Shown here: in pieces, positions 5,633 through 64,000 of the stretch
How positions within the stretch are numbered: position 1 is the first letter of the stretch
How the letters are laid out: the number at the start of each line of letters is the position of its first letter
Source: Vicinamibacteraceae bacterium
GTDB lineage: Bacteria; Acidobacteriota; Vicinamibacteria; Marinacidobacterales; Marinacidobacteraceae
NCBI GenBank assembly: GCA_012271265.1
Contig: JAAXGQ010000015.1
Span: 6,153-70,152 of the forward strand
Direction of reading: 5' to 3'
DNA: 64,000 nt
Program-made: the position numbers and the translations under genes
Notes under the pieces: generated by a model
What the model was told of the DNA's origin: nothing
Seen by the model: the letters and a program-made list of their open reading frames with translations, nothing else
The model's database searches: none

Positions 5633-5704
5633 CTGGGGCGGAAGGATTCGAACCCTCGTAGACCGGAACCAAAACCCGGCGCCTAGCCACTCGGCCACGC
5701 CCCA
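5633..5704 (-). tRNA. tRNA-Gln (anticodon UUG)
   Basis: Reverse complement reads TGGGGCGTGGCCGAGTGGCTAGGCGCCGGGTTTTGGTTCCGGTCTACGAGGGTTCGAATCCTTCCGCCCCAG. It folds as a cloverleaf: 7-bp acceptor stem, anticodon stem CCGGG/TCCGG, loop TTTTGGT (anticodon TTG), T-loop TTCGAAT. Architecture is very close to E. coli tRNA-Gln. Confidence 0.8.
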
Positions 5705-5719
5705 TCGGCCTGGAGGAGA

Positions 5720-11145: not shown

Positions 11146-11312
11146 GCGCCGCAGAACCGGCGGATCCTAGCAGCCTGTAGACGAGGTGACGCGGCATTCG
11201 AGCGGCGATCCATACGTGGCTGAACCAGGCCGCAAAGCGGCCTTCTGCGTTGCGCTCGCTCGGAATACGCCAGGTATTCCTCCCTCACGCGCCTTGTCAG
11301 CCACACGCCTCA

Positions 11313-11360
11313 CCACTCTCGGTGCTCACGCCACCTCGTCCACAGGCGGCTCGCAGCCTG
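11313..11360. repeat. about 48-bp direct repeat flanking the 54-bp tandem array (left copy)
   Basis: ccactctcggtgctcacgccacctcgtccacaggcggctcgcagcctg recurs with 2 mismatches at 11883-11930. Confidence 0.8.
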
Positions 11361-11389
11361 CAGACGAGGTGGGATGGAGGCCGATCTTC

Positions 11390-11855
11390 CGGCTCCGACG
11401 GTGCGGCGCAGGCCGGCGAGGACGCCGGCGCTCCATGGGGCCAGCGCTCCGACGGTGCGCCGCAGGCCGGCGAGGACGCCGGCGCTCCATGGGGCCAGTG
11501 CTCCGACGGTGCGCCGCAGGCCGGCGAGGACGCCGGCGCTCCATGGGGCCAGCGCTCCGACGGTGCGCCGCAGGCCGGCGAGGACGCCGGCGCTCCATGG
11601 GGCCAGTGCTCCGAAGGTGCGGCGCAGGCCGGCGAGGACGCCGGCGCTCCATGGGGCCAGTGCTCCGACGGTGTGGCGCAGGCCGGCGAGGACGCCGGCG
11701 CTCCATGGGGCCAGTGCTCCGACGGTGCGCCGCAGGCCGGCGAGGACGCCGGCGCTCCATGGGGCCAGTGCTCCGACGGTGCGGCGCAGGCCGGCGAGGA
11801 CGCCGGCGCTCCATGGGACCGGCGCTCCATGGGGCCGGCGCTCCATGGGGCGCCA
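11390..11855. repeat. tandem array of about 8 copies of a 54-bp unit belonging to the GC-rich palindromic repeat family
   Basis: Unit ccgacggtgcgccgcaggccggcgaggacgccggcgctccatggggccag[c/t]gct, repeated head-to-tail. Each unit contains the hairpin GCCGGCG-AGGA-CGCCGGC. Because the unit is 18 codons, all six frames hold spurious repeat-protein ORFs. Confidence 0.9.
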
Positions 11856-11882
11856 CCCCCCCACCTGGAGAACCGGGCCGCG

Positions 11883-11930
11883 CCACTCTCGGTGCTCACG
11901 CCACCTCATCCACAGGCGGCTCGCAGTCTG
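11883..11930. repeat. about 48-bp direct repeat flanking the 54-bp tandem array (right copy)
   Basis: cgccactctcggtgctcacgccacctcatccacaggcggctcgcagtctg, 38 bp upstream of the selA ATG. Confidence 0.8.
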
Positions 11931-11967
11931 ACCAGCGACCGATGGAAGGGCGGGGGGATGGAGCCGG

Positions 11968-13534: not shown

Positions 13535-13598
13535 TGCAGACGCTGCGGCGCAGGCCGGCGAGGACGCCGGCGCTCCATGGGACCGGCGCTCCAACCGT
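13535..13598. repeat. solo copy of the GC-rich palindromic repeat (TIR-type core)
   Basis: ctgcggcgcaggccggcgaggacgccggcgctccatgggaccggcgctcc is the same core as the 54-bp array. Confidence 0.8.
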
Positions 13599-19570: not shown

Positions 19571-19674
19571 CGGGGGGGGCGGGAGCGGGCAGCGTAACCG
19601 CGCCGGCGGCCCGTTCGGCCTCCCCGCCCATAGAATCGCGGATCCGGCGTTCACCGGCGCCGGAGGAGACGACC

Positions 19675-24806: not shown

Positions 24807-25381
24807 ACCTGACGCGAGAGGAAGCCTGGGCGCACCTCACCGACTGGTGCGAAACGGAATCGCTGCGCAAACACGCGCGGGCGGTGGAGGTGGTCATGCG
24901 CGCCGCCGCCGCCCGTTACGGAGGTCCCGATGCCGACCCGGAGGTCTGGGGGATCGCCGGGATGCTCCACGACGCCGACTACGAGAAATGGCCGGAGGAA
25001 CACCCGAACCGGATCGTGGCCTGGCTGCGGGAGCGCGGTGAAGAGGAGCTCGCCCACGCCATCTCCGGCCACTACACGAAGTGGGGCGTCGAGCTGAAGT
25101 CGCCCCTGGACCGGGCTCTGCTCGCCTGCGACGAGCTCACCGGCTTCATCTGCGCCTGCTGCCTGGTCCGGCCCGACGGGGTGTCGACGCTCAAGGCGAA
25201 GAGCGTGAAGAAGAAGCTGAAGTCCCGGGGATTCGCCGCCAAGGTGGAGCGGCACGAATGCCGGGTGGGCGCGGAACTGCTCGAAGTGGAACTCGGCGAG
25301 CACATCACCTTCATCATCGGCGCCCTCCGTCCCCACGCCGATGAGCTCGGCATCACCGGCCGAAGACTTCCCCCTTCCTGA
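24803..25381 (+). CDS. HD-domain phosphohydrolase
   Basis: HARAVEVVMRAAA...AGMLHDADYEK gives the H...HD motif of HD-superfamily hydrolases; ATG at 24803 overlaps the DoxX stop. Its last about 130 bp are duplicated downstream at 27672-27808. Confidence 0.75.
   Translation: MNLTREEAWAHLTDWCETESLRKHARAVEVVMRAAAARYGGPDADPEVWGIAGMLHDADYEKWPEEHPNRIVAWLRERGEEELAHAISGHYTKWGVELKSPLDRALLACDELTGFICACCLVRPDGVSTLKAKSVKKKLKSRGFAAKVERHECRVGAELLEVELGEHITFIIGALRPHADELGITGRRLPPS
25222..25358. repeat. direct repeat A: intact 3' end of the HD gene, duplicated downstream of the inserted cassette
   Basis: attcgccgccaaggtggagcggcacgaatgccgggtgggcgcggaactgc...gagcacatcaccttcatcatcggcgccctcc...ctcggcatcacc is about 88% identical to 27672-27808. 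Confidence 0.85.
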
Positions 25382-26567
25382 CGCCGTGGACGCGGCCCGC
25401 CTCCGGGAACTCCTCGCCAGGAGGGAATCCGACCGGGTGGAATTCACGACTTCGTCGCCCGGGAGGACCGACAAGTTCGCGCAGGCAGCCTGCGCGTTCG
25501 CGAACGACCTGCCGGCGCACGGACGACCGGGGTTCATTGTGTTTGGCGTCCATGACACCGGGTCGCCGGCCGGGTGGACGGTCTCCGACCGGCTTCTGAA
25601 GCGGTTGGCCGGGCTGCGGTCCAATGTGAGCCTGGGACCGATCCCGTCTCTGGTGGTGCACAAGGTCGCTCTTGCCGAGGGTGACGTGGCCGTGGTCGAG
25701 GTTCAGCCCGCCGACTTTCCTCCGGTGCGCTACCGGGGACGCGTGTGGGTGCGGGTGGGGCCGACCCGGCGCGTGGCGACCAGGCAGGAAGAGCAGATTC
25801 TGACGGAAAGGCGCGCCTTCGGCCTGGCCACGTTCGACCTGCGGCCCGCCGCCGGCTCGTCCATCCACGACCTGGCGGAGGACCTGTTCCGGATCGGCTA
25901 TCTGCCGCACGCGGTGTCCCCCGATGTGCTCCTCGAGAACGACCGGGGCGTCAGGGAACAGCTCGCCTCCCTTCGGTTCTTCGACCTCCGGCACGGATGT
26001 CCGACCTATGCGGCGCTCCTGCTGTTCGCCCGGGATCCGTTGCGCTGGATCCCCGGCGCATGGATCCAGTTCGTGCAGTGGGCGGGAACGTCGCTGGCAA
26101 GCGAACCCATCCGCAGCCGTACGGTCGCCGGCGACCTGCTGACCGTTCTGCGCGAGGTGGATCTGCTCGCGTCCCTTCCCACCGACGCCCGGCCGGTCCC
26201 GGAGACGACGCTTCGGGAACGACACGAGCGGCGCTATCCGAAAGCCGCGATTCGGGAACTCCTGCTGAACGCCGTCATGCACCGGCTCTACGAATCGACC
26301 GCGCCCGTTCGCTTCAACTGGTTCACGGACCGCCTCGAGATCCAGAATCCGGGCGGCCTCTACGGGATCGCGCCGGCGGACTTTCCCCATCGGACAAGCT
26401 ATCGGAATCCGGTCATCGCCGAGGCGATGGCGACCCTTGGATACGTGAACCGGTTCGGACGTGGAGTCCTGGCGGCTCAGGCAGCGTTGCGGGCCAACAG
26501 GAATCCGGACGCGGAGTTCCAGTTCGATCCGGCGCACGTCCTGGTGACGATGCGGGCGCGGCCATGA
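25341..26567 (+). CDS. Schlafen/AlbA_2 DNA-binding domain + HATPase_c_4 (RecG-C-terminal-like) protein, often annotated as putative transcriptional regulator/ATP-binding protein
   Basis: N-terminal AlbA_2 signature ESDRVEFTTS...AACAFANDLPAHGRPGFIVFGVHDTG. C-terminal HATPase_c_4 signature IRELLLNAVMHRLYES...RLEIQNPGGLYGI...YRNPVIAEAMATLGYVNRFGRGV. Sits inside the DR-flanked insertion; the start may be slightly downstream of 25341, since that start overlaps the HD gene. Confidence 0.7.
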   Translation: MSSASPAEDFPLPDAVDAARLRELLARRESDRVEFTTSSPGRTDKFAQAACAFANDLPAHGRPGFIVFGVHDTGSPAGWTVSDRLLKRLAGLRSNVSLGPIPSLVVHKVALAEGDVAVVEVQPADFPPVRYRGRVWVRVGPTRRVATRQEEQILTERRAFGLATFDLRPAAGSSIHDLAEDLFRIGYLPHAVSPDVLLENDRGVREQLASLRFFDLRHGCPTYAALLLFARDPLRWIPGAWIQFVQWAGTSLASEPIRSRTVAGDLLTVLREVDLLASLPTDARPVPETTLRERHERRYPKAAIRELLLNAVMHRLYESTAPVRFNWFTDRLEIQNPGGLYGIAPADFPHRTSYRNPVIAEAMATLGYVNRFGRGVLAAQAALRANRNPDAEFQFDPAHVLVTMRARP

Positions 26568-27562
26568 AGACGATCGCGTTCTTCAACAACAAGGGCGGCG
26601 TGGGGAAGACCACGATTGCGTATCACCTCGCGTGGATGTACGCCGACACGGGCCTGAGCGTCGTCGCCGCCGACCTCGACCCTCAGGCCAATTTGACGGC
26701 CATGTTCCTGGACGACAGCAGGTTGGAAGAGGTCTGGCCGGACGATGCCGACCATCCCTTGAGCATTCTCGGCGCCGTGGAGCCGATCCTGCGCGGCATA
26801 GGCGACATCAACCCCGCGCACGGAGAACGCGTTGAGGACCACCTGACGGTGGTGGTCGGAGACCTGGGCCTTTCTCGGTTCGAGGCCCGGCTTGCCACTT
26901 CGTGGCCCGAGTGCATGAACCGGGACGAGGCCGCCTTTCGCGCCCAGTCGGCGTTCTACCGCATCCTTTCGGGCGTAGCGGCGCGTCGGCATGCTGATGT
27001 CGTGTTGATGGATGTCGGCCCGAATCTCGGCGCCATCAATCGCGCTGCCTTGCTCGCAGCGGACTTCGTGGTCTTCCCCCTTGGTCCCGATCTGTTTTCC
27101 CTCCAGGGGCTAAGGAACCTCGGGCCGACGCTCAGCGAATGGCGAGCGGGCTGGCAGGACCGTCTGGACCGCCGCCCGACGGGGCCGGACCTTGCTCTGC
27201 CGGACGGGGGCCCGCATCCCGCCGGCTACGTGGTGATGCAGCATGCGGTCCGGGCGAACCGGCCGGTGCACGCCTGCGAACAGTGGATTCGGCGAATTCC
27301 AGGCGTCTACCGAGTGGAAATCTGCGGCGACGCCGCACCCGCTCCCGCGTCAGGTGCGGACGATCCCTACTGTCTCGGGACACTGAAGCACTACCGGAGC
27401 CTGATTCCGATGGCGCAGGAGGCGCGCAAGCCGGTGTTCGCTCTGAGGGCGGCGGACGGCGCGCTGGGCGGCCATTACTACGCGGTCATGGACTGCCGCG
27501 AAGACTTCGAGAGGCTGGCGCGTTCGATCGCGGACAGTTGCGGCATCGCGGTCCCGGAGTAG
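26564..27562 (+). CDS. ParA/MinD-family (AAA_31/CbiA-like) ATPase with extended C-terminal domain
   Basis: Deviant Walker A FFNNKGGVGKTTIAYHLA and Walker B VLMDVGP. Its ATG overlaps the upstream stop (ATGA), indicating translational coupling. No parB and no centromere-like repeats are nearby. Confidence 0.75.
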   Translation: MKTIAFFNNKGGVGKTTIAYHLAWMYADTGLSVVAADLDPQANLTAMFLDDSRLEEVWPDDADHPLSILGAVEPILRGIGDINPAHGERVEDHLTVVVGDLGLSRFEARLATSWPECMNRDEAAFRAQSAFYRILSGVAARRHADVVLMDVGPNLGAINRAALLAADFVVFPLGPDLFSLQGLRNLGPTLSEWRAGWQDRLDRRPTGPDLALPDGGPHPAGYVVMQHAVRANRPVHACEQWIRRIPGVYRVEICGDAAPAPASGADDPYCLGTLKHYRSLIPMAQEARKPVFALRAADGALGGHYYAVMDCREDFERLARSIADSCGIAVPE

Positions 27563-27671
27563 CCCTGCGGGGCTCGGGGCCTTCCCGCAAGCCGCTGGCA
27601 CGTGTGCGCTTGAGCAGCTGCCGCGACAAACCCGCAGCCGTCGCTCGCGGGGGAGGAAGGACGTAGCTGGA

Positions 27672-27808
27672 GTCCAGGGCGTTCGCCGCCAGAGTGGAGC
27701 GGCACGAATGCCGGGTGGGCGCGGAACTGCCCGGAGCGGAACTCGGCGAGCACATCACCTTCATCATCGGCGCCCTCCTTCCCCAGGGCCGAGGAACTCG
27801 GCATCACC
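27672..27808. repeat. direct repeat B: diverged displaced copy of the HD-gene 3' end (right boundary of the insertion)
   Basis: gttcgccgccagagtggagcggcacgaatgccgggtgggcgcggaactgcccggagcggaactcggcgagcacatcaccttcatcatcggcgccctcc...ctcggcatcacc; it would encode VERHECRVGAEL...EHITFIIGAL, like the HD C-terminus. Confidence 0.85.
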
Positions 27809-27899
27809 TGCCGCCGCCTCCACCGCTGAGCCCCGCGACGCTCGGCACATCCGGGCCGAGGCAGCCGTGCTCTCCCCGGCGAGCTGCGCGAGCTGGTCG

Positions 27900-27957: not shown

Positions 27958-28189
27958 GACGACGCAGGTGGTTCGCTGGGGAGCGAGCCTCGCAGTACGG
28001 ATCCCGAAGCCAGTCGCCGAACACTGGGGCGTTCGGGAAGGCGTCGTCGTGGACCTCGTGCCCGGTCGCAACCAGGTGATCCTGCGCAAGAAACGTTACG
28101 AATTGAAGGCGCTGGTCGCGGGCATCACGCCGACAAACCGCCATGGGGAAACCGACTGGGGCGATGCGAAGGGCGCCGAGGCGTGGTGA
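27958..28189 (+). CDS. mazE: AbrB/MazE-family (SpoVT/AbrB fold) antitoxin
   Basis: VRWGASLAVRIPKPVAEHWGVREGVVVDLV is a swapped-hairpin AbrB/MazE fold. A toxin gene lies directly downstream and overlaps it. Confidence 0.75.
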
Positions 28190-28524
28190 CCGACCTCCAT
28201 ATGCCCGACCGGGGCGACCTGGTGTGGCTCAACTTCACCCCCCACGCGGGACATGAACAGGCGGGCCATCGTCCGGCACTGGTGGTGAGCCCGAAGGAAT
28301 ACAACTCGAAGTCCAGCCTTGCCCTCTTGTGCCCTGTCACATCCGCGACCCGGGGCTATCCCTTCGAGGTGGCACTGCCCACGAGTGGACCCATCAGCGG
28401 TGTGGTGCTCGCCGATCAGATCCGCAGCCTGGATTGGCGGGCGCGGGGTCTTCGGTTCGCCGCCAAGGCCCCGCCGCGAGTCGTTGCAGAGGTGCTCGGC
28501 AAGGTGTCTACGCTGGTGGGCTGA
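28183..28524 (+). CDS. mazF: MazF/PemK-family endoribonuclease toxin
   Basis: PDRGDLVWLNFTPHAGHEQAGHRPALVVS...LLCPVTS matches the MazF/Kid consensus. The ATG at 28201 is the likely true start. Confidence 0.8.
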   Translation: MVTDLHMPDRGDLVWLNFTPHAGHEQAGHRPALVVSPKEYNSKSSLALLCPVTSATRGYPFEVALPTSGPISGVVLADQIRSLDWRARGLRFAAKAPPRVVAEVLGKVSTLVG

Positions 28525-29559: not shown

Positions 29560-29618
29560 TCCATGACCGCCTGCGGCGGTGGCCGGTGAGGACACCGGCG
29601 CTCCAGGCGGGCAGGGCG
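29560..29618. repeat. solo copy of the GC-rich palindromic repeat
   Basis: ggccggtgaggacaccggcgctccaggcgggcagggcgg is the TIR-R-type variant seen in the 39.1-40.3 kb array. Confidence 0.7.
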
Positions 29619-29640
29619 GGTGGCGATGGGCGGGTGGGGA

Positions 29641-32343: not shown

Positions 32344-32397
32344 GCGGGCGGGCCTCCGCTGCAAGGAACGAGTAAAGAGCGGCACGACCCGCGCGGA

Positions 32398-32468
32398 ACC
32401 CCCGCGCCCACCTGGAGCGCCGGCGTCCTCGCCGGCCTGCGCCGCACCGTCCGAGGACGCCGGCGCTC
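32398..32468. repeat. minimal palindromic repeat element (both inverted termini with a short spacer)
   Basis: ggagcgccggcgtcctcgccggcctgcgccgcaccgtccgaggacgccggcgctcc has the two TIR cores in inverted orientation separated by about 12 bp. Confidence 0.8.
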
Positions 32469-37648: not shown

Positions 37649-38974
37649 ATGGGGCTCCGTGGAACGAAATCCACGCTGGTGGTGCTCGGGCTGGCGCTCG
37701 CGGCGCCCGCGGGCGCGCAGCAGCGACTCGCCCTGGTGGGCGGGATGCTGCTCGACGGGTACGAGGTTCCCCCTGTGCACCACGCCGCGGTCGTGATCGA
37801 GGGCGCCCGGATCGTCGCCGTCGGCCGGGCCGCCGAGATCGAGATTCCGGACGACGCGGAAGTGATCGATACGAGCGGGCGGGTCATGCTGCCGGGCCTG
37901 ATCGACCTCCACGCCCACTTGGCCATCCTCGGACACGGCTCCTACGGCCGCTGGTTTCCCTGGCTCGAGGAGGAGGGCATCTCCATCGAAGAGGTCATGG
38001 AAATCTCGGCGAAGCAGCTTCTTCTCGCCGGCGTGACCACCGCCGTGGATCTGGCGGCCCCGCTCGAGGCCAGCATCTCGCTGCGGGACCGGATCGCGCG
38101 CGGAGAAATCCCCGGCGCCCGGATGCTGATGAGCGGTCCCTGGATCACCAGCGCGGTCCGGTTCTGGCCGCCGGAGTTTCAGATCGGTGTGTCGTCTCCC
38201 GAGGAAGCGTCCGAGGCGGTGGAGCGTCTCGCCGCTGCGGGCGTGGACGTGATCAAGGCGTGGGCCGGCCTCACCCGAGAGGACTACCAGGCAATCGCGG
38301 ACACCGCGCACGAACACGGCCTGCGGGTACACGCTCATGTCTACGGGCCGGAGGAGGTCAGGAACGCGCTCGAGACTGGTATCGACGTGCTGACCCACGC
38401 CGGATCGGCCGGCACGCCCCCCTATGAGCCGGAGCTGGTCCGCGACATCGTGGTCGCCGGCCGGCCGGTCGTGATCACCGGCGCCCACCGCGTCTGGGTG
38501 TTCCCGGCGACGGTGCAGTTCCCCGAGCGCCTCCAGGATCCGAGGCTCCGCCAGGACCTGCCGGCGGTGATGTACGAGGAGTTCCAGCGCAGCTTCGAGA
38601 ACTTCCACACCCTCGGCTACTTCCAGACCACGCCCCGGCAGATGTTCTTCGGCGACGCCTCCCTCGGCCAGTTCATCGACGCCGGGGCGGTCATGGGGAT
38701 GGGCACCGATTCGGGGACGCCGCTGAACTTCCACACCGAGGCGCTCTGGCGCGAGATCAAGGCCCATGTGGACCTCGGGATGGCGCCGCTGGACGCCATC
38801 GCCGCAGCGACCCGCATCAACGCCCGGATTCTGGGCATGGGCGACGAGCTGGGAACGATCGAGGTCGGCAAGCTCGCGGACATCATCGTGATCGACGGCG
38901 ATCCTCGGTTCGACATCATGGCCCTCGACGACCCCGTGCTGGTCGTCAAGGATGGCCGCCCGTACCGGCGCTGA
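37649..38974 (+). CDS. amidohydrolase-family metallo-hydrolase, secreted (paralog 2)
   Basis: Signal peptide MGLRGTKSTLVVLGLALAAPAGAQ; the same HxH / HAHVYGPEE / GMGTDSG motifs as paralog 1. Confidence 0.8.
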   Translation: MGLRGTKSTLVVLGLALAAPAGAQQRLALVGGMLLDGYEVPPVHHAAVVIEGARIVAVGRAAEIEIPDDAEVIDTSGRVMLPGLIDLHAHLAILGHGSYGRWFPWLEEEGISIEEVMEISAKQLLLAGVTTAVDLAAPLEASISLRDRIARGEIPGARMLMSGPWITSAVRFWPPEFQIGVSSPEEASEAVERLAAAGVDVIKAWAGLTREDYQAIADTAHEHGLRVHAHVYGPEEVRNALETGIDVLTHAGSAGTPPYEPELVRDIVVAGRPVVITGAHRVWVFPATVQFPERLQDPRLRQDLPAVMYEEFQRSFENFHTLGYFQTTPRQMFFGDASLGQFIDAGAVMGMGTDSGTPLNFHTEALWREIKAHVDLGMAPLDAIAAATRINARILGMGDELGTIEVGKLADIIVIDGDPRFDIMALDDPVLVVKDGRPYRR

Positions 38975-38994
38975 CCGGCGAGGGAGCAAGAACG

Positions 38995-39070
38995 ATGAGG
39001 CTCGTGAGAACCGCGTTCGGCGTTGCGGCGGCGACGCTGCCGTTGCCCGTTTCCGCCACGCACGGGTTCA
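38995..39070 (+). pseudogene. 5' remnant of a PQQ-dehydrogenase gene, truncated by the repeat array
   Basis: ATGaggctcgtgagaaccgcgttcggcgttgcggcggcgacgctg encodes MRLVRTAFGVAAATL. This equals the first 15 codons of the intact PQQ-DH at 46340 (MKLVRTAFGVAVATL), then the sequence runs into the repeat array. Confidence 0.7.
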
Positions 39071-39144
39071 GCGGATTGCTGCGGAGCGAGTGAGGTGGCG
39101 CCGGTTTTCTGGACAGGTCGTCAAGGTGGATTCCACGAACTGGT

Positions 39145-40262
39145 GGAGCGCCGGCTCCATGGAGCGCCGGCGTCCTCGCCGGCCTGCGCCTTGCCTGCGA
39201 CGATCCACAGTCCGGGCGGACGGACGCTCCATGGAGCGCCGGCGTCCTCGCCGGCCTGCGCGCAACTTCCGTCCCCGCGGCAGTCTCGCGTCCACAGCGC
39301 CGCCGTGCCGACTCATCCGTGGGCCGGTGAGGACACCGGCGCTCCAGGCGGGCCGGTGAGGACGCCGGCGCTCCAGAACTGACCCCCCTGACGTATCCAC
39401 CCCCTGAACTATCCGCCCCCTGAACTATCGAGCGCCGGCTCCATGGAGCGCCGGCGTCCTCGCCGGCCTGCGCGCAAACTCCGTCCCCGCGGCAGTCTCG
39501 CGCCTGTAGCGCCGCCGTGCCGACTCATCCGTGGGCCGGTGAGGACACCGGCGCTCCAGGACGGAGAGGACGCCGGCGCTCCAGAACTGACCCCCCTGAC
39601 GTATCCACCCCCTGACCTATCCGCCCCCTGAACTGTCGAGCGCCGGCTCCATGGAGCGCCGGCGTCCTCGCCGGCCTGCGCGCAACTTCCGTCCCTGCGG
39701 CAGTCTCGCACCTGCAGCGCCGCCGTGCCGACTCATCCGTGGGCCGGTGAGGACACCGGCGCTCCAGGCGGGCCAGTGAGGACGCCGGCGCTCCAGAACT
39801 GACCCCCCTGACGTATCCACCCCCTGAACTATCCGCCCCCTGAACTATCGAGCGCCGGCTCCATGGAGCGCCGGCGTCCTCGCCGGCCTGCGCGCAACTT
39901 CCGTCCCTGCGGCAGTCTCGCGCCTGTAGCGCCGCCGTGCCGACTCATCCGTGGGCCGGTGAGGACACCGGCGCTCCAGGCGGGCCGGTGAGGACGCCGG
40001 CGCTCCAGAACTGACCCCCCTGACCTATCCGCCCCCTGAACTAGCGTGCGCCGGCTCCATGGAGCGCCGGCGTCCTCGCCGGCCTGCGCGCAACTTCCGT
40101 CCCTGCGGCAGTCTCGCGCCTGCAGCGCCGCCGTGCCGACGGACCCGTGGGCCGAGAGGCCCACGGACCATTGCCCGCCTGCGGCGGGGGCCGGTGAGGA
40201 CACCGGCGCTCCAGGCGGGCCGGTGAGGATGCCGGCGCTCCAGAACTGACCCCCCTGACGTA
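39145..40262. repeat. five tandem about 210-bp units of a MITE-like element with 24-bp terminal inverted repeats
   Basis: Period about 210 bp, with unit starts near 39145, 39427, 39636, 39847 and 40044. Each unit is bounded by GGAGCGCCGGCGTCCTCGCCGGCC and GGCCGGTGAGGACGCCGGCGCTCC, which are imperfect reverse complements of each other. The interior carries C-rich short repeats (cccccctga). Units are more than 90% identical and there are no unique spacers. Confidence 0.9.
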
Positions 40263-40301
40263 TCGGCGCCCGCGCCGTCATCCCATCGGCGCCCTCTGCC
40301 G

Positions 40302-46149: not shown

Positions 46150-46320
46150 GGCGGCGAGCGGGCGATCTCCGGCGCCCGGAGCGGGCTTCCTGGGCGGGCG
46201 CCGTCGAGGCGGGCGGGCTCGCGGACATAATCGTCATCTCCGGCGATACCCGGCTCGACATCATGGCCCTCGACGACCCCGTGCTGGTGGTCAAGGACGG
46301 CCGGCCGTACCGGCGCTGAC
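46150..46320 (+). pseudogene. 3' remnant of an amidohydrolase gene (segmental duplication fragment)
   Basis: Translates to ...AVEAGGLADIIVISGDTRLDIMALDDPVLVVKDGRPYRR*, matching the C-terminus of 37649-38974 (..IEVGKLADIIVIDGDPRFDIMALDDPVLVVKDGRPYRR*); upstream sequence is degenerate. Confidence 0.75.
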
Positions 46321-46339
46321 GAGTGAGGGAGGGAGAACC

Positions 46340-48262
46340 ATGAAGCTCGTGAGAACCGCGTTCGGGGTCGCGGTGGCGACGCTGCTGCTTTCCGTCTCCG
46401 ACGCCCACGCCCAGCGGGCCGACTGGGAAACCCACGGCGGCGATCCGGGGGGGATGAAGTACTCGTGGCTCGACGAGATCAACCGGGACAACGTGGACCG
46501 GCTCGAAGTCGCGTGGACCTGGGAGACCGGGGAGGAACCCCTCTCCATGGCCAGCTCTCCCATCCGGGGCGAACAGGTCGCGCCCGGGAAGTTTCAGGGG
46601 ACTCCGGTCGTCCTGGACGGGGTCATGTACGTCAGCACCTCCTACAGCCGCGTGGCTGCGCTCGACGCGGCCACCGGAGAGGAGCTCTGGGCCTACGACC
46701 CCCGCGCCTACGAGTGGGGGAATCTCCCGCGCGGCTGCCGTTTCTGCCACCGAGGCGTCGCCGTGTGGACCGACGGCGAGGAGCGGCGCGTCTTCATCAA
46801 CAGCCGCTGGATGCTGGTCGCGCTCGATGCGCTGACCGGGGAACCGATCGCGTCGTTCGGCAGCGGCGGGGTCGCGGACCTCACCGAAAACCTCATGTGG
46901 GAGACGAACCGGCTCCTGTACACGAACACCTCACCGCCGGTGGTCTACAAGGACCTCGTCATCGTCGGCAGCGGTGTTCCCGACAACCGGATCTTCCGGA
47001 GGAACCCGCCGGGCGACGTACAGGCGTTCCACGCCCGCACCGGGGAGTTCGTCTGGAGCTTCCACACGATTCCCCAAGAGGGGGAATACGGCAACGACAC
47101 CTGGGAGGACGGCTCGGCGTCCTACACGGGATCGGCCAACGTCTGGGCGCCCTTCACCGTGGACGCCGAGCGCGGACTCGTCTATCTGCCGGTCAGCACG
47201 CCGAACAACGACTACTACGGCGGCCATCGAAAGGGGGACAACCTCTTCGCGGAGTCCATCGTCTGTCTCGACGCCAACACCGGCAGGCGGGTCTGGCACT
47301 TCCAGACCGTGCGTCACGGCATCTGGGACTACGACCTTCCGGCGCCGCCCAACCTGATCACCATCGAGGTGGACGGCAGGACGATCGACGCGGTGGCGGT
47401 CGTGGGGAAAACCGGATTCGTCTACGTCTTCGACCGGGTCACCGGCGAGCCGGTGTGGCCGATCGAGGACCGCCCGGTTCCGGCCAGCGACGTGCCCGGC
47501 GAGCGCGCCGCGACGACCCAGCCCTACCCCACGAAGCCGCCGCCGTTCGGCCGGCAGGGGTTCACCACGGACGATCTGATGGACTTCACCCCCCAACTGA
47601 AGGCGAGGGCGCTCGAGGTCGTCAAGGACTATCGCCTGGGCGCCATGTTCACCCCGCCCTCGCTGGAAGGGACGGTCATCCTGCCGGGAATCTGGGGCGC
47701 CGGGAACTGGGGCGGAGCGGCGTTCGATCCGGGTACCGGGACGCTCTACGTCAAGGCGACCAACTGGCCCTCGGTGTTCCGGGTGGCGCCGCCCGATTCG
47801 CCTCTGGTGGAGGCCGACTACCGGGGCTCCGGCTTCGGCGCCCGGCTGGAACTCGTCCGTGGCGTCCCGGTGCACAAGCCCCCCTACGCCACCCTCACCG
47901 CCCTCGACCTGAACGCCGGCGAGCTGCTCTGGCAGATCACCCTCGGCGATTCGCCCCAGATCCGCAATCACCCGTTGCTGAGGAACCTGGATCTTCCGCA
48001 GCTCGGGGTGGCGCCGCCGCAGCACGGACAGTCCGCGGCGCTCGTGACCGAAGGGGGACTCCTCTTCATCAGCGCCGCGAGCGACCATCTCTACATCTTC
48101 GACAAGGCGGACGGCGCGTTGCTCCGGGAGATCCCGCTGGGCGGCGGCGGGTTCGGCAACCCGGTCACCTACCTCGCCGGTGGACGCCAACTGGTGTCGA
48201 TCGCGACATCGCAGTCGGACGGATCCGAAGCGAAGATCCTCACCTTCCAGTTGCCCCGGTAG
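46340..48262 (+). CDS. PQQ-dependent quinoprotein dehydrogenase (paralog 2)
   Basis: Signal peptide MKLVRTAFGVAVATLLLSVSDAHA and the same tryptophan-docking repeats (ELWAYDP, FVWSFHT, RVWHFQT, ELLWQIT); about 60% identical to 22427-24376. Confidence 0.85.
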   Translation: MKLVRTAFGVAVATLLLSVSDAHAQRADWETHGGDPGGMKYSWLDEINRDNVDRLEVAWTWETGEEPLSMASSPIRGEQVAPGKFQGTPVVLDGVMYVSTSYSRVAALDAATGEELWAYDPRAYEWGNLPRGCRFCHRGVAVWTDGEERRVFINSRWMLVALDALTGEPIASFGSGGVADLTENLMWETNRLLYTNTSPPVVYKDLVIVGSGVPDNRIFRRNPPGDVQAFHARTGEFVWSFHTIPQEGEYGNDTWEDGSASYTGSANVWAPFTVDAERGLVYLPVSTPNNDYYGGHRKGDNLFAESIVCLDANTGRRVWHFQTVRHGIWDYDLPAPPNLITIEVDGRTIDAVAVVGKTGFVYVFDRVTGEPVWPIEDRPVPASDVPGERAATTQPYPTKPPPFGRQGFTTDDLMDFTPQLKARALEVVKDYRLGAMFTPPSLEGTVILPGIWGAGNWGGAAFDPGTGTLYVKATNWPSVFRVAPPDSPLVEADYRGSGFGARLELVRGVPVHKPPYATLTALDLNAGELLWQITLGDSPQIRNHPLLRNLDLPQLGVAPPQHGQSAALVTEGGLLFISAASDHLYIFDKADGALLREIPLGGGGFGNPVTYLAGGRQLVSIATSQSDGSEAKILTFQLPR

Positions 48263-59331: not shown

Positions 59332-60531
59332 ATGCCTGTGAAGATGACCCGGCGGCGCGTGCTGCAAGGCGGCGCCTCCGCCGCGGTGCTTGGAGCCGCG
59401 GCCTGCGGATCCGGGTCCGGGCCCGACGCCCCCGCAGCGCCGGAGGAGGTCTACCGGCGGCTGGGAATCGAGCCGGTGATCAACGGCATCGGCACGGTGA
59501 CAGTCCTGGGCGGGTCCATCATGCCGCCCGAAGTCACCGACGCCATGGTCGGGGCGTCCCGCAGCTTCGTGCCGCTTCCCGAGCTCCAGGAACGGGCGGG
59601 CGACCACATTGCCCGGCTGATCGGGGCGCCGGCCGCCATGATCTCGGCCGGGGCCGCCTCCGCGATGACCTGCGGGACTGCGGCGGCGATCGCCGGCGAC
59701 GACGACGGGAGGCTGCGGATGCTTCCGAACACCACGGGGATGAAGAACGAAGTGATCCAGCAGCGGGCCCACCTCACCGGCTACCAGGCCCAGATGGAAC
59801 TCGTTGGGGCGAAGATCGTCTGGGTGGAGACCCGCGGGGAACTGGAAGCGGCGATCAACGAGCGGACGGCCATGATGTTCTTTCTGAACTTCGCCGACCC
59901 TCGGGGCGAGATCGGCCGCGCCGAGTGGATCGAGGTGGCGCGGGCGCACGGCGTGCCCACCATGAACGACGCCGCCGCCGACATCCCGCCTCCGGAGCGT
60001 CTCCGCACCTACGTCGAAGAGGGGTTCGACATGGTCGCCTTCTCGGGTGGCAAGGGCCTCCGCGGCCCGCAGGCAACGGGACTCCTGCTCGGACGCCCCG
60101 ATCTGATCCAGGCTGCGCGCAGGGCGATCAGCCCGTTCGGCGGTATCGGCCGCGGCATGAAGGTGGGCAAGGAGGAGATCGTCGGCCTGGTGGCGGCGGT
60201 CGAGCGCTACGTCTCCCTCGACCACGACGCGGAGCGGCGCGAACTGGACGCTCGCGCCGCGTTGATTTCGGGGGTCCTGGGGAGCGTGAGCGGCGTCTCC
60301 CTCGAGACCCACGTGCCGGAGATCGCCAACCACGTCCCCCACGTGGTGGTGAGCTGGAGCGAGGGCGATCTGGGCGTGACGTCGGAAGAGGCGGTCGCCC
60401 GACTTCTGGAAGGGGATCCGCCGATCGCGGTCTCCCGTTCGGGAGAAGGACAGCTCCGCATCTCGACGTGGATGCTCCGTTCCGGCGAGGACGCGGTGGT
60501 CGCCGAGCGGGTCAAGGCCCTGCTCGGATAA
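59332..60531 (+). CDS. SelA-like / DgaE-family PLP-dependent enzyme with Tat/lipoprotein signal
   Basis: MTRRRVLQGGASAAVLGAAACGS combines a Tat motif and a lipobox. GIEPVINGIGTVTVLGGSIMPPEV and VAFSGGKGLRGPQATGLL (PLP Lys) are typical of the SelA-like DgaE (glucosaminate-6-P ammonia-lyase) family. Confidence 0.72.
   Translation: MPVKMTRRRVLQGGASAAVLGAAACGSGSGPDAPAAPEEVYRRLGIEPVINGIGTVTVLGGSIMPPEVTDAMVGASRSFVPLPELQERAGDHIARLIGAPAAMISAGAASAMTCGTAAAIAGDDDGRLRMLPNTTGMKNEVIQQRAHLTGYQAQMELVGAKIVWVETRGELEAAINERTAMMFFLNFADPRGEIGRAEWIEVARAHGVPTMNDAAADIPPPERLRTYVEEGFDMVAFSGGKGLRGPQATGLLLGRPDLIQAARRAISPFGGIGRGMKVGKEEIVGLVAAVERYVSLDHDAERRELDARAALISGVLGSVSGVSLETHVPEIANHVPHVVVSWSEGDLGVTSEEAVARLLEGDPPIAVSRSGEGQLRISTWMLRSGEDAVVAERVKALLG
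60431..60531. repeat. direct repeat A': intact 3' end of the SelA-like gene, duplicated after the second insertion
   Basis: tctcccgttcgggagaaggacagctccgcatctcgacgtggatgc...gagcgggtcaaggccctgctcggataa is about 85% identical to 61991-62090. Confidence 0.8.
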
Positions 60532-60694
60532 GGACGGAGCGCCGGTCCCGTCGAGCCGACCCTTCGAGGTCCGGCGTGTTCCTTGATGTGGACCGGCGGC
60601 TTGCGGTGGGCGCCACCCTCGGCCGGCCGGGCTGAAGACGGGCGCTCCTGCGGACGCTCCCGACGTTGGGAACGCCACCGAGTGCACGGAATGT

Positions 60695-60719
60695 CGTCAT
60701 TTTACGGCGTAAAATGACG
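60695..60719. promoter_or_regulatory. 25-bp perfect palindrome CGTCATTTTACG-G-CGTAAAATGACG immediately upstream of the AAA+/DUF4143 gene
   Basis: Read directly from sequence. It is AT-rich relative to background and lies 2-17 nt before the candidate starts (GTG 60722 / ATG 60737). Confidence 0.6.
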
Positions 60720-60721
60720 GG

Positions 60722-61885
60722 GTGCTCTACAAAAGGATGACGCGTGTTCCGCGCCAGAGTTTCTTCCTGTTCGGGGTTCGCGGCGTAGGCAAGAGCACCT
60801 GGGCCCGGAAGATGCTGCCCGATGCGCAGCACTTCGACCTCCTCGACGAGCGGTTGTTTCACGACCTCCTGGCGGACCTCGGACTGTTCGCCCGGCTCGC
60901 GCGCGCCTCGCCGCCGCAGCGGTGGATCGTGGTGGACGAGGTGCAGCGGCTGCCCCCGCTCCTGAACGAGGTCCACCGGCTCATCGCGGAGGGCCGGCGG
61001 GTCGCGCTTCTCGGATCGAGCGCCCGAAAGCTGCGGGCCGCCGGGGTGAACCTGCTCGCCGGGAGGGCGCTCTGGAAGCAGATGTTCCCCCTTCTCCCGG
61101 AGGAGCTGGCGGGGGACTTCCGGGTGGAGGAAGTCCTTCGGCACGGCTCGATCCCGGTCGTGTGGACGGCCGACGACCGGGCGGAGACGCTGGAAAGCTA
61201 CGTGCGGCTCTACCTGCGGGAAGAGATCCGGGCGGAATCGAGCCTCCGGAACCTCCCCGCCTTCGCGCGCTTCCTGCCGGTGGCGGCGGTGAGGCATGGC
61301 CAGAAGGTGAACGTCGCGGGGCTCTCCCGGGATGCGGGAGTCGCCCGGACCACGGTCTCGGGTTATCTCGAGGTGCTCGAAGACACGCTCGTGGCCTGGC
61401 GCCTCCCGGCCTTCGAGGCGAAGCTGCGGGTCCGGGAACGCCGCAAGCCCAAGCTCTACTGGGTGGACCCCGGTCTGGTGCGGGCGGCCCGCCGCCGGCT
61501 CGGTCCGGTGGGGAGCGAGGAACGGGGCCCACTCTTCGAGGGCTGGGTGCTCGGTCTGCTGCGGGCGTGCCGGGAGCGGGAGCGCCTCTACGACGACCTC
61601 CGCTACTGGGCCGCCGCCGGCTCCCGCATCGAAGTGGACGCGGTGCTGCTCCGCGGCAGCGAGCGCCTCGCCATCGAGGTCAAGGCCGCGCGGCGGTTCC
61701 ACTCTTCGCAGGTCCGCGGCCTCCAGGCGATTTCCGAACTGCCGGGGCTGGTGCGGCGGGTGCTCGTGTACATGGGAGACCACCGTTTCCGGACGCCCGG
61801 AGGCATCGAGGTCTGGCCGGTCCGCGACTTCACCGGCGCGCTGGAAACGAACACCCTCTGGCCCTCTTCCGGCCGCGGCGGGTGA
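60722..61885 (+). CDS. AAA+ ATPase with DUF4143 C-terminal domain
   Basis: Walker A FGVRGVGKST, Walker B WIVVDEVQRL, and a C-terminal DUF4143-like region (restriction-endonuclease-like fold in this family). Confidence 0.75.
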   Translation: MLYKRMTRVPRQSFFLFGVRGVGKSTWARKMLPDAQHFDLLDERLFHDLLADLGLFARLARASPPQRWIVVDEVQRLPPLLNEVHRLIAEGRRVALLGSSARKLRAAGVNLLAGRALWKQMFPLLPEELAGDFRVEEVLRHGSIPVVWTADDRAETLESYVRLYLREEIRAESSLRNLPAFARFLPVAAVRHGQKVNVAGLSRDAGVARTTVSGYLEVLEDTLVAWRLPAFEAKLRVRERRKPKLYWVDPGLVRAARRRLGPVGSEERGPLFEGWVLGLLRACRERERLYDDLRYWAAAGSRIEVDAVLLRGSERLAIEVKAARRFHSSQVRGLQAISELPGLVRRVLVYMGDHRFRTPGGIEVWPVRDFTGALETNTLWPSSGRGG

Positions 61886-61990
61886 CCCCCGGCTGAGGGA
61901 CGAGGATCGCGGTCCCTTTGGGGCCCTCAGTCCCCCTCCCGCCGGGCTTCGTCGAGCCCACACTCGCAGCCAGGAAAGCGAGGAGAGCAG

Positions 61991-62090
61991 TCTCCCGTTC
62001 GGGAGAAGGGCCGCTCCGCATCTCGACCTGGATGCCGCTCCCGGTGAGGACGGCGTGGTGGCGGAGCGGGTGCAGTCGCTCTTCGTCTGA
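61991..62090. repeat. direct repeat B': displaced copy of the SelA-like gene 3' end (right boundary of the second insertion)
   Basis: tctcccgttcgggagaagggccgctccgcatctcgacctggatgc...gagcgggtgcagtcgctcttcgtctga, encoding ..RISTWMP..VAERVQSLFV*. Confidence 0.8.
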
Positions 62091-62125
62091 GCCCAGGCGC
62101 GCGGAGAGGGCGTCGCCGGACTGCT

Positions 62126-62518
62126 CTATCCATTCGACGCCTCGTTCAGGGCGCCACCCACCTGCCCCAACAGCGACTCGATGGCGGCGAGCGGCTCGGC
62201 GCGACGTACAGGACCGTCGTCAGGGTTCACACCTTCATAGCGGAACGTCACCGCGTACGGAGTGTAGGCGGCGAGCTGTCGGAAGGAGTCCACGTCCACA
62301 CCACGGGTCGTGAGCAGGTCGAGCAGCGCCGCGATGTCGTGGGTGAGCGGATAGGTCTCGCCCAGAACGGCGATCCACGCCTTCAGCCCCTTCTCCGCAG
62401 CCTGTTGCACGTGGAACCCGAACACTTCATCCGACCCCCGATCGCCCATCAGCCGCAGCGCCTCGAGATCCCGTCCTGCAGCTTCGAGCAGCATGCGGGC
62501 ACACTTAGGGTCGCTCAT
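62126..62518 (-). CDS. HEPN-domain protein (toxin component of a HEPN-MNT module)
   Basis: 130 aa; helical HEPN fold with an R-x4-6-H-like region (RYEGVNP...) and a HEPN-like N-terminus; its start overlaps the MNT stop. Confidence 0.65.
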   Translation of the reverse strand: MSDPKCARMLLEAAGRDLEALRLMGDRGSDEVFGFHVQQAAEKGLKAWIAVLGETYPLTHDIAALLDLLTTRGVDVDSFRQLAAYTPYAVTFRYEGVNPDDGPVRRAEPLAAIESLLGQVGGALNEASNG

Positions 62519-62861
62519 AGAGCACCCTTCCCTCCCTCAGAGCGCGAGCGAGCACATGATTCAGGGAGTCCCGCCAGTACTCCACATCCTCCTGCGAGTA
62601 GACCAGCAAGTCGGCAGGCACACGAAAACCGCTCAGGAGCCCGTAGAGGCGCGCCATCTCACGCCGGCGGCTCCGTCCCGGTCCGAAGGGTTCGGCCTCG
62701 ATCACGATCAGATCCACGTCCGAATGGTCGTGATGGTCGCCGCGCCCCCGCGATCCGAACAGAATCACCTGCTCGGGGTCCACTTCGTCGACGATGGTCC
62801 GCACCATGCGGTCCAGCAGGTCTTCGGTAATCGCCGTGACGAGGTGGAAAGCCTGCTTCAT
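62505..62861 (-). CDS. minimal nucleotidyltransferase (MNT) domain protein
   Basis: GSRGRGDHHDHSDVDL is the G[SG]x9-13DhD polymerase-beta-type NTase motif; likely Met start at 62861. Confidence 0.7.
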   Translation of the reverse strand: MKQAFHLVTAITEDLLDRMVRTIVDEVDPEQVILFGSRGRGDHHDHSDVDLIVIEAEPFGPGRSRRREMARLYGLLSGFRVPADLLVYSQEDVEYWRDSLNHVLARALREGRVLYERP

Positions 62862-62966
62862 CCCGATGGACCGTCGGTTCCCGTCACCCTCACCGTAGGA
62901 CAACGCGAGGACAGCGAGTCGGGGAGGCGGTGCGGCTGCACCCGGTCGCCATGCCCCACGTGGTGG

Positions 62967-64000
62967 TCAGGAGCCGCCCGAGGTCCGCTGGATGAACCCG
63001 CCGACGTCCTCCCGCCACTGCGGCAGCAGCGATTCCTCGACGTACATCATGTGGCCGGCGGCGAAGTCGGCCCGTTCGATGTTGGACCGGAGCTCCGGCG
63101 GGAGGCCCATCTGCTCCACGGACCACATCGCGGCGAAGTAGGGGGTGGCGAGGTCGTAGATCCCGTTGACCAGCAGGACCTTCAGGTCGGGGTTCCGCTT
63201 CATGGCCTGCGCGAGGTCGGGCGCCACGTTGGGCGTCCCGCCGCCCCGGGCGAAGAAACCTCCGCCGCCCAGCCGGCCCCAGTTCCAGTTCCGGGTGGCG
63301 CCGCTGGGCACGTACTCCCGGTCACCGTCGTAGCCGAGTTCACCGCGCAGGTAGCTGTTGAACGCCGAGGTGTAGGCCGAGCTGATCGCGGTGGACTGGG
63401 GGTCATGCGAAGGACGGCCGCCCAGCACGTCGCCCGCGGGTCCGGTGAAGCGGGCGTCGAGCCGTCCCACGATGCGTCCCTCGTCGCGGAGCAGCTCGGC
63501 CTCGAAGGCAGGAGCGGTCACGCGGAGGTTCGACTTGTCGATGAAGTCCCTGCCGAGGCCGGTGTAGAGGTGCATCTGGTCGATCACCCGGGCGCGCTTC
63601 TCCGGATCGAGGGTGGTGCCGGCGAGGAGCGCCGTCGCGTACTCGTTCAGCGACCACGCCTCCACTTCGGCCATGAAGGCGTCCAGGTCGTCGGGAGACC
63701 CGCCGGGGAGGCGGTCCAGGTAGCGCGCGGTGATGGCGTAGGACGGAAGGTTGACGATGTAGGGGATGTCGTCACCGGGCGCGAACTGGATGGTGTTGAA
63801 CTGGAGGACCACCGAGACGAGCACGATGCCGTTCAGGTCGATGTTGGCGCGCTGCAGATGTCGGGCGAGGACCGCGGAGCGGGTCGTCCCGTAGCTTTCG
63901 CCGAGCAGATACCGCGGCGAGTTCCAGCGGTCGTACTCGCTCAGAAAGCGCCGGACGAATTGCGCGAGCGAACGGGCGTCCTCGTCGATGCCCCAGTAGT
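62967..64000 (-). CDS. S10-family serine carboxypeptidase (C-terminal part; gene continues past window end)
   Basis: Translation upstream of the listed Met continues in frame to the window edge and contains GESYG (S10 catalytic-Ser motif), then later D and H regions (..DLATPY.., ..AGHMMY). Confidence 0.72.
   Translation of the reverse strand, partial: YWGIDEDARSLAQFVRRFLSEYDRWNSPRYLLGESYGTTRSAVLARHLQRANIDLNGIVLVSVVLQFNTIQFAPGDDIPYIVNLPSYAITARYLDRLPGGSPDDLDAFMAEVEAWSLNEYATALLAGTTLDPEKRARVIDQMHLYTGLGRDFIDKSNLRVTAPAFEAELLRDEGRIVGRLDARFTGPAGDVLGGRPSHDPQSTAISSAYTSAFNSYLRGELGYDGDREYVPSGATRNWNWGRLGGGGFFARGGGTPNVAPDLAQAMKRNPDLKVLLVNGIYDLATPYFAAMWSVEQMGLPPELRSNIERADFAAGHMMYVEESLLPQWREDVGGFIQRTSGGS

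Follow-up and report, generated by a model that had tools for sequence, protein, structure and literature searches.

Between two convergent core genes of a Vicinamibacteraceae bacterium lies a single AAA+/DUF4143 ATPase gene, inserted into a gap that is empty in four related genomes, and the 3' end of the left core gene, which encodes a SelA-like enzyme, stands on both sides of it, once as the end of the intact gene and once as a dead copy. The window, by which we mean the whole stretch of DNA analysed, comprises 64,000 nucleotides of contig JAAXGQ010000015.1 (assembly GCA_012271265.1, positions 6,153 to 70,152, forward strand), and the locus lies near its right-hand end. Immediately ahead of the ATPase start codon is a perfect 25-bp palindrome that is conserved at this position within the ATPase subfamily. 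There is, in our judgement, about an even chance that homology-anchored recombination at the gap, a hotspot for small cargo, added the ATPase cassette and that the distal repeat is a former SelA-like 3' end that was displaced. The features of the locus are as follows (coordinates in the window, strand, feature).

59332-60531, plus strand: SelA-like pyridoxal phosphate (PLP) enzyme with a twin-arginine translocation (Tat)/lipoprotein-type signal (Pfam SelA, 28.6 bits); left core gene, 3' end intact
60427-60531, plus strand: direct repeat, proximal copy (last ~105 bp of the functional SelA-like gene)
60532-60694, plus strand: upstream spacer, 163 nt
60695-60719, no strand: palindrome, 25 bp (12+1+12)
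60722-61885, plus strand: AAA_14 + DUF4143 ATPase-nuclease, 387 aa, GTG start, PADLOC candidate PDC-S01 (Pfam, PADLOC)
61886-61986, plus strand: spacer 3' of the ATPase gene, 101 nt
61987-62090, plus strand: direct repeat, distal copy (frameshifted SelA-like 3' end with a TGA stop)
62126-62518, minus strand: HEPN-domain protein, toxin-type partner, 130 aa (Pfam HEPN, 4e-15)
62505-62861, minus strand: MNT-type nucleotidyltransferase, antitoxin-type partner, 118 aa (Pfam Polbeta/NTP_transf_2; PADLOC PDC-S09)
62967-64000, running past the window end, minus strand: peptidase S10 (serine carboxypeptidase), right core gene (Pfam annotation on L094)

A duplicated gene end brackets the ATPase cassette

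The closing ~105 bp of the SelA-like gene, 60427-60531, are found again at 61987-62090 at about 85% identity, with the ATPase as the sole gene between the two copies. An earlier note on this DNA, made from the letters alone, had proposed that an insertion here duplicated the end of the gene, and the alignment of the two flanks upholds the duplication (E of 4e-23 for the upstream against the downstream flank; z = 17 against dinucleotide shuffles). The best local alignment of the copies spans 86 nt with one gap at 84.9% identity, and the first 49 nt of the repeat are 92% identical. The distal copy is a dead gene end: a 1-nt deletion makes it shorter than the proximal copy and breaks the reading frame. 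Its closing residues are still ...VVAERVQSLFV, and a TGA occupies the aligned stop position. Its terminus, TTCGTCTGAgc, is that of the orthologous genes in loci L003 and L005. The proximal terminus is the unusual one (...LLG-TAA), a ~24-nt extra stretch providing the TAA stop, and after these ~24 extra nt the native-like intergenic sequence GAGCCGACC, as in L001, follows at 60552-60560. The TAA, the extra nucleotides and the native GAGCCGACC together indicate that the repeat reaches slightly past the stop codon, by about 10 nt at this locus. Both copies share the sub-clade-specific GTCTCCCGTTCGGGAGAAGG with L003 and are 80-87% identical to L001-L004 and 65-66% identical to L010, and both thus appear to derive from the window's own sub-clade.

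The arrangement recurs in independent assemblies, L094 carrying the entire region at 99.8% identity and L157 and L158 spanning the junction between HEPN gene and remnant, and is therefore not an assembly artefact. As the earlier note had stated, neither this insert nor a second repeat-flanked insert of the window (described below) holds an integrase or transposase; a Pfam scan found no such domain in them or among 47 open reading frames (ORFs) of the window, nearly all of the large ones. A transposon or insertion sequence was rejected as an explanation (no transposase domain, no terminal inverted repeats, and a repeat of 105 bp rather than 2-15 bp), as was an integron cassette (the palindrome lies 5' of the gene and overlaps a -10-like box, and no integrase is present).

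Neither spacer (60532-60694, 61886-61986) has a homologue in any fetched locus, so that the donor could not be traced. The downstream spacer shows no significant fold, and no terminator was found in the region. Two attempts to find native sequence in the flanks were discarded: reading the upstream spacer as decayed native intergenic region plus peptidase 3' end yielded three short collinear matches (z about 2), and alignments seeking a peptidase 3' remnant either 3' of the ATPase gene (61886-61990) or beside the HEPN gene (62088-62300) were no better than those of shuffles.

The upstream spacer opens, directly after the SelA-like stop codon, with the 14-nt core GGAGCGCCGGTCCC (60536-60549) of a dispersed GC-rich repeat family of this genome. 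The family, with core GGAGCGCCGG(C/T)..., is found at 11284-11931, 13539-13598, 29567-29626, 32396-32442, 39143-40271 and 60536-60549, with a 54-bp tandem array just 5' of genuine selA and, at 39.1-40.3 kb, arrays that repeat every ~210 bp, and it resembles repetitive extragenic palindromic (REP) sequences. A 15-nt motif, CGTCGAGCC(G/C)AC(C/A)CT, occurs at 60549-60563 and 61950-61964, 18 nt past the proximal stop and 23 nt ahead of the distal repeat, at a level that is not significant (E about 0.7); it resembles the stop region of the distal copy, TTCGTCTGAGCC, minus the T.

The SelA-like/peptidase S10 gap is a cargo hotspot

Orthologous loci were compared in a one-genome-per-species scan of metagenome-assembled genomes (MAGs) of the Acidobacteriota class Vicinamibacteria. 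The gene order amidase, amidohydrolase, SelA-like, followed by the convergent peptidase S10 gene, is conserved, with amino acid identities of 77-92% for the SelA-like orthologues and 84-96% for the peptidase. The content of the gap between the two stop codons varies. It is empty in four loci, the stops lying 10 nt apart in L001 and L002 and 27 nt apart in L005 and L006, and these empty-site alleles bear out the insertion that the earlier note had proposed. L003 has about 85 nt with a small repeat element, and L004 about 250 nt of non-coding sequence with long inverted repeats that resemble a miniature inverted-repeat transposable element (7200-7460). In L007 the gap holds the HEPN-MNT pair only, the HEPN stop lying 3 nt from the SelA-like stop; L160 and L161 have the pair without the ATPase (L161 without the SelA side); L010 has only the ATPase (77% aa identity) and no repeat; and L008 has about 2 kb of other cargo, partly degraded. 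A weak flanking repeat in L010 was set aside as not significant (z = 1.2). In L160, two tandem copies of a non-coding ~230-bp unit lie between the HEPN and SelA-like genes (5421-6014). With cargo between the convergent core-gene stops varying from locus to locus and including none at all, the comparison marks this 10-27-nt gap as a small cargo hotspot of this Vicinamibacteria lineage and not the target of a single element.

The HEPN gene occupies the same hotspot in L007, L160, L159 and L161, and the closest non-identical relative of the HEPN-MNT pair (84% aa) is that of L159, a TARA ocean contig. There the last 38 nt and stop of the SelA-like gene lie against the HEPN gene behind a different gene (1104-1286), the 3' part of a glutamate-synthase-like, flavin mononucleotide (FMN) gene whose reading frame continues into the remnant. 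The contig suggests that displacement happened independently at this hotspot, and so more than once, with variable joints.

It is very improbable that nothing was inserted, that is, that the SelA-like 3' region was duplicated locally in tandem with the ATPase gene ancestral at its position. The ATPase of L010 lies at the same position and has diverged to a degree (77% aa) like that of the SelA-like protein (76-79%), which fits old vertical inheritance; set against this, four closer relatives have the clean empty site described above, vertical inheritance would demand at least three independent precise losses, tandem duplication puts no foreign sequence between its copies, and the ATPase subfamily is found in unrelated contexts in other phyla.

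A conserved palindrome precedes the ATPase start codon

The palindrome CGTCATTTTACG-G-CGTAAAATGACG (60695-60719) has perfect arms and occurs once in the window, where shuffles give an expectation of zero. The GTG start codon of the ATPase gene lies two bases past it, and its right arm contains a -10-like TAAAAT (60710-60715) 6 nt before this start. In five loci found by protein similarity alone (the window and four homologues) the palindrome precedes the start codon, and three more distant homologues have a related CGTCAnTTTnCGG-CTATTATTGAC. Metagenome contigs were then scanned with the pattern CGTCANTTTNCGNCGTAAANTGACG, a first scan with peptide patterns drawn from the single ATPase protein having found no relatives. 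The palindrome pattern gave 60 loci: 48 have the start of an ATPase homologue (52-69% identical where aligned) within a few nucleotides of the palindrome, in 3 the palindrome is followed by a frameshifted, internally deleted or contig-truncated ATPase copy, about 6 keep the palindrome with a gene stub or no gene, and the remainder lie at contig ends. Altogether the palindrome stands 2-9 nt ahead of the start codon of the ATPase subfamily in about 50 independent loci from several phyla. The left arm is variable, with compensating changes on both arms that preserve the symmetry (for example CGTCAG...CTGACG in L083), and the right arm always contains TAAAnT, 6-11 nt from the ATG or GTG with no Shine-Dalgarno sequence between.

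Decayed cassettes were observed in contigs L113, L142, L145, L133, L112, L143 and L124, where the palindrome is intact and the gene is internally deleted, frameshifted, reduced to as little as a dozen codons, or gone. Such copies point to frequent gene loss after insertion.

From this placement we infer that the palindrome is the conserved promoter/operator region of the subfamily, combining a -10 element with an overlapping operator for a dimeric binder, and the ATPase messenger is probably leaderless or nearly so. The earlier note had put forward the palindrome as a candidate recombination site or operator. The second role agrees with its position 2-9 nt before the start codon and with the -10-like hexamer; the first does not hold, because the palindrome lies inside the insert and away from the junctions, at one end of the gene only, and is also present at loci without a flanking repeat. 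Rfam has no match at the palindrome region, and no mention of the subfamily's palindrome was found in the literature searched.

The ATPase belongs to the PDC-S01 defence candidates

In all its sequence-level features the ATPase gene is a member of PDC-S01/COG1373. The protein matches Pfam DUF4143 (7.9e-28) in its C-terminal part, AAA_14 (1.2e-14) in its N-terminal part, and six PDC-S01 models of PADLOC, the best at 4.7e-47. Across 37 homologues the Walker A residues G18, G21, G23, K24 and S25 are invariant, as are the residues of the PD-(D/E)XK nuclease (E304, D306, E319 and K321), and Walker B residues D72 and E73 are conserved in at least 90%; DUF4143 is listed in the PD-(D/E)XK superfamily (PMC3424549). 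The AlphaFold model is of moderate quality (pLDDT, the predicted local distance difference test score, 62.7), being poor in the middle third and confident for the two terminal domains only, with the C-terminal domain modelled at pLDDT 85-93. Fold matches of the model to DnaA, RFC and McrB confirm the AAA+ domain, and matches to nuclease-type folds (VC1899, Cdn1) are weak full-length alignments only. A sequence search of solved structures with the ATPase gave no match.

The closest relative is 77% identical, and members of the subfamily are 52-77% identical across phyla. They lie in unrelated contexts: between ggt and a TonB-dependent receptor gene beside a PIN gene, in an amidase/BNR-sortilin gap, by HicB, and by PemK and AAA_21/UvrD. 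Plasmid and phage collections hold only distant family members (at most 36% identity), and no vehicle was identified in them. PDC-S01, an ATPase fused to a PD-(D/E)XK domain, is reported to be the fourth most common defence candidate across prokaryotes (PMC12988326). One representative, challenged in E. coli B with phages T4, T5 and T7, was outside the four protective candidates (bioRxiv 10.1101/2024.09.26.614923; the single test found).

Gene-end repeats around other cassettes and other cargo

The flanks of the ATPase gene were compared in 33 distinct loci by local alignment against dinucleotide shuffles. Significant flanking repeats were found in four, which represent three independent events with repeats of 105 bp (the window), 85 bp (L107/L116) and 73 bp (L111); the other 29 have none. 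In L107 and L116 the repeat comprises 85 bp of the malate dehydrogenase gene (mdh) 3' end and starts exactly at the stop codon. The remnant lies on the promoter side, with about 20 nt between repeat and palindrome, and the ATPase gene is convergent with mdh, 1 nt separating the two stops. Identity between the copies is 83.5% in one genome and 96.5% in the other; a derived base common to both remnants makes the event older than the split of these genomes. In L111 the 73-bp repeat runs across the ends of two convergent genes. The orientation of the cassette relative to the duplicated gene goes either way among the repeat-flanked cases. Each of the three independent events has a single intact ATPase cassette between its repeats, free of debris, which speaks against the decayed integrative element that the earlier note had suggested.

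The signature is not confined to the ATPase. As the earlier note had observed for another insertion in the window, the 3' end of an HD-domain gene is duplicated (25215-25381 and 27665-27829; 25215-25362 against 27665-27813 aligns over 149 nt at 89.9%). The second copy is a frameshifted former gene end with a 1-nt insertion; minus the extra base it reads ...AEELGITCRRLHR and stop, close to the ...AEELGITGRRLHS and stop of homologues. The cargo (25386-27562) consists of an AlbA_2/HATPase_c_4 gene, starting probably at GTG 25386, 4 nt past the HD stop, and a gene for a ParA-like ATPase. The relative L096 shares the HD-AlbA junction, with its cargo degraded and the distal remnant missing; L095 carries other cargo, and the two together mark this junction as a second hotspot. 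A MazF toxin gene lies nearby at 28183-28524. The Bryobacterales MAG L014 has a duplicated ggt (gamma-glutamyltranspeptidase) 3' end, 140 bp long and 98% identical between the copies (2572-2711 and 4121-4260). The repeat starts inside the stop codon, which is TAA in one copy and TAG in the other, and flanks 1.4 kb of cargo with a 342-aa unknown gene; the remnant is directly upstream of a vapBC pair.

A third repeat pair in the window (38859-39064 and 46204-46409; 206 nt, 84%) spans the junction of an amidohydrolase gene with the gene after it, which encodes a pyrroloquinoline quinone (PQQ) dehydrogenase: it takes in the 3' end of the former, the sequence between them and ~95 nt at the start of the latter. 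The left copy has the intact 3' end and a truncated 5' stub, and the right copy a 3' remnant and the intact gene. Between them lie 7.1 kb with repeat arrays and two genes, GWxTD/TPR and TonB-receptor-like, that have paralogues nearby; an old segmental duplication, instead of an insertion, may therefore account for the pair. Other repeat pairs were excluded as paralogous signal peptides (L048, L053), dispersed repeats (L138) or a tRNA-bounded island (L044). The L044 island, a classical one from a related acidobacterial genome, is bounded by an 82-bp, 95% identical repeat (4027-4108 and 8359-8440) that looks like the 3' part of a tRNA gene, and repeats of attachment-site (att) type thus appear to exist in this phylum as well.

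These cases bear on whether the cassette was placed by site-specific integration in trans, in which a minimal element whose att site mimics the gene 3' end would have been moved by a recombinase encoded elsewhere, the repeats being attL and attR. Direct repeats do bound the insert, the gene is restored with its own stop codon, the outer boundary lies at or within a few nucleotides of the stop in L107/L116, L014, the HD case and the window locus, and the L044 island shows that such elements occur in related bacteria. Several observations run the other way. Besides the lack of a recombinase in the insert and among the window ORFs scanned, the three different targets in 64 kb would each call for a specificity of its own; no repeat accompanies the ATPase that L010 carries at the same site; the L159 remnant at the same gene is 38 nt, not 105 nt; cassette orientation relative to the duplicated gene differs among cases; and both copies look native to the sub-clade, neither being a foreign mimic. 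A recombinase in trans is not the most economical explanation, and we hold it to be rather unlikely. More generally, the earlier note had supposed that the insertions share one mechanism; varied repeat lengths (73-206 bp) and orientations, unrelated cargo, several targets within 64 kb, the lack of a recombinase among the window ORFs scanned and the 29 of 33 repeat-free loci, L010 at this very site among them, argue against any single site-specific system.

A proposed order of events and its weak points

The recombination reading would have the locus assembled in two steps. The HEPN-MNT pair, which several lineages have at this site, probably came first and would have stood immediately next to the SelA-like stop as in L007; it is read as older because the distal copy abuts the HEPN gene as the intact gene does in L007 and because the divergence of the pair tracks that of the flanking genes. 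In a later step a minimal ATPase cassette, composed of the palindrome, a probably leaderless gene and a short tail, would have been added on the SelA side by recombination anchored on SelA-like homology, its other end being joined illegitimately; alternatively a small circle could have entered by a single Campbell-type crossover. The working SelA-like gene would thereby have retained a complete 3' end, and the old last ~105 bp with their stop would have been shifted downstream, attached to HEPN-MNT, where they would since have decayed by the 1-nt deletion and about 15-20% substitutions. Once the cassette was in place, transcripts driven by the TAAAAT of the right arm would begin on the start codon or just ahead of it; the palindrome would be bound by a dimeric protein, perhaps the DNA-binding region of the ATPase itself, and transcription thereby switched off. 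Two observations agree with the proposed route: a conserved anchor gene stands beside a position with differing cargo in relatives, and a displaced anchor 3' end lies between new and older cargo, with parallel cases in L014 and L107.

A number of points weigh against this account. No donor allele close enough to show a crossover was found, the best ATPase relative being 77% identical; the ATPase allele of the locus in L010 exists and is too distant to be the donor. Microhomology at the joints amounts to at most 2-3 nt and is uninformative, with only GC(R) common at the inner boundary. The repeats of L107/L116 and L014 have their outer boundary on the stop codon itself, and that of the HD case lies at it, a pattern also seen with the gene-end-restoring att sites of integrative elements. 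The L107/L116 copies were nearly identical when formed, which a true target duplication explains equally well. A strict sigma-70 consensus scan found no full promoter at the palindrome region, where the proposed promoter consists of the -10-like hexamer only. Finally, by a rough count biased by the choice of loci, flanking repeats appear about 30 times as frequent around the ATPase cassette as around other genes of the 1.3 Mb fetched, and such enrichment could point to a cassette-specific process.

The boundaries at the stop codon, the near-identity of the L107/L116 copies at birth and the apparent enrichment would suit a recombinase in trans, or else a dedicated, undescribed route by which the cassette makes 70-110 bp target duplications, the AAA+/PD-(D/E)XK protein perhaps cutting the DNA and the palindrome serving as recognition site as well as promoter. 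In its favour, the unit between the L107/L116 repeats consists precisely of promoter and gene, with 1 nt past the stop and about 20 nt ahead of the palindrome, and the copies were nearly identical at birth, three independent repeat-flanked events occur in 33 contexts, and the subfamily is spread across phyla at 52-77% identity in unrelated contexts with decayed copies that keep the palindrome. The PDC-S01 representative that gave no phage protection in the single test found (bioRxiv 10.1101/2024.09.26.614923) would also fit. Against it, 29 of the 33 loci are repeat-free, the same signature surrounds unrelated cargo (HD/AlbA-ParA, L014) and is thus not ATPase-specific, no terminal repeats mark the ends of an element, the palindrome is at one end only, and the window spacers of 100-160 nt on both sides depart from the tight-cassette geometry. 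We know of no transposition chemistry that employs only an AAA+ ATPase and a PD-(D/E)XK nuclease, and we consider this route quite improbable. A broader proposal is that the ATPase cassette, and perhaps small accessory cassettes of these bacteria at large, enter by some regular process, recombinase-free or undescribed, that duplicates 70-200 bp, usually of a gene end, and so leaves dead gene ends from which the order of cargo acquisition could be read. It is in our estimation unlikely, including in its stronger version, in which the very abundant PDC-S01 would be a selfish mobile gene using the palindrome for both expression and movement.

Neighbouring genes

MNT is the upstream gene of the toxin-antitoxin-type pair and shares 14 nt (62505-62518) with HEPN. 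The MNT start is placed at ATG 62861 following the gene call on L094; the listed ORF begins at TTG 62903. A stretch of 35 nt, ending at the HEPN stop, comes after the distal repeat copy, and the peptidase S10 gene is convergent with the SelA-like gene. The latter, a weak SelA match only (28.6 bits), encodes a PLP enzyme different from, and weakly related to, genuine SelA. A genuine selenocysteine synthase gene is present elsewhere in the window (11932-13443, 432 bits), and at 17291-19714 a pyridine-nucleotide oxidoreductase is fused to an AIR-synthase-type (SelD-like) domain.

Relation to known systems

The ATPase shares with PDC-S01 the same two domains, the length class and the conserved ATPase and PD-(D/E)XK motifs, nearly all of them invariant. 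PDC-S01 genes likewise stand alone, often by toxin-antitoxin or defence-type genes (PMC3424549; PMC12988326). Compared with PDC-S01 at large, the present subfamily is distinguished by the conserved 25-bp palindrome over its core promoter. The predicted HEPN-MNT toxin-antitoxin pair is an ordinary module, with MNT upstream of and overlapping HEPN and both Pfam domains present. What may be new here is modest, namely the palindromic control region of an ATPase subfamily and the recurrence of dead gene ends as cargo borders. PDC-S01 is very common, yet its function is unproven, and the palindrome offers a handle on its binding partner, on the timing of expression and on a possible lack of a leader in the messenger. 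At small hotspots the order of acquisition can be read from the dead gene ends that separate cargo units, and these ends suggest how genomes without visible mobile-element genes accumulate defence and toxin-antitoxin genes; should the repeats prove to be true target duplications, an undescribed insertion route would be indicated.

In its outline the locus resembles C-terminal displacement by homology-facilitated illegitimate recombination, which has been proposed for Rhs, contact-dependent inhibition (CDI) and type VI secretion effector-immunity arrays (PMC5361080). Common to both are a conserved anchor gene, cargo arriving with a fresh 3' end, the old end and older cargo shifted outward as orphans, and no recombinase. 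The displaced piece here is, however, 105 bp of an ordinary metabolic gene rather than a variable toxin domain, and the cargo, a defence-type gene of unrelated sequence, is no alternative version of the anchor's own C-terminus. The cis-mobilizable elements (CIMEs) of the ICESt1/ICESt3 family are recombinase-less derivatives of integrative elements at gene 3' ends. They share with this locus the direct repeats of the 3' end, the restored gene, tandem cargo accretion with att remnants and cargo without an integrase; unlike them, the present cases show no integrase, a repeat of no fixed length or orientation, and the same cargo at the same site free of repeats. With no recombinase in the insert or among the window ORFs scanned and no fixed boundaries (L010, L159), the locus departs from the integrase class in two tested features.

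Finally, defence hotspots flanked by core genes have been described for the pan-genomes of E. coli and Pseudomonas aeruginosa, and the SelA-like/peptidase S10 gap is like them in its fixed intergenic position, its small and varying defence or toxin-antitoxin cargo, or none, and its lack of mobility genes. It differs from those hotspots in being very small (0-2.4 kb of cargo), in lying between convergent stops, in its uncultured Acidobacteriota host and in the remnant that marks a cargo border. Placed beside these systems, the case is a real but fairly ordinary instance of bacteria swapping small accessory genes.

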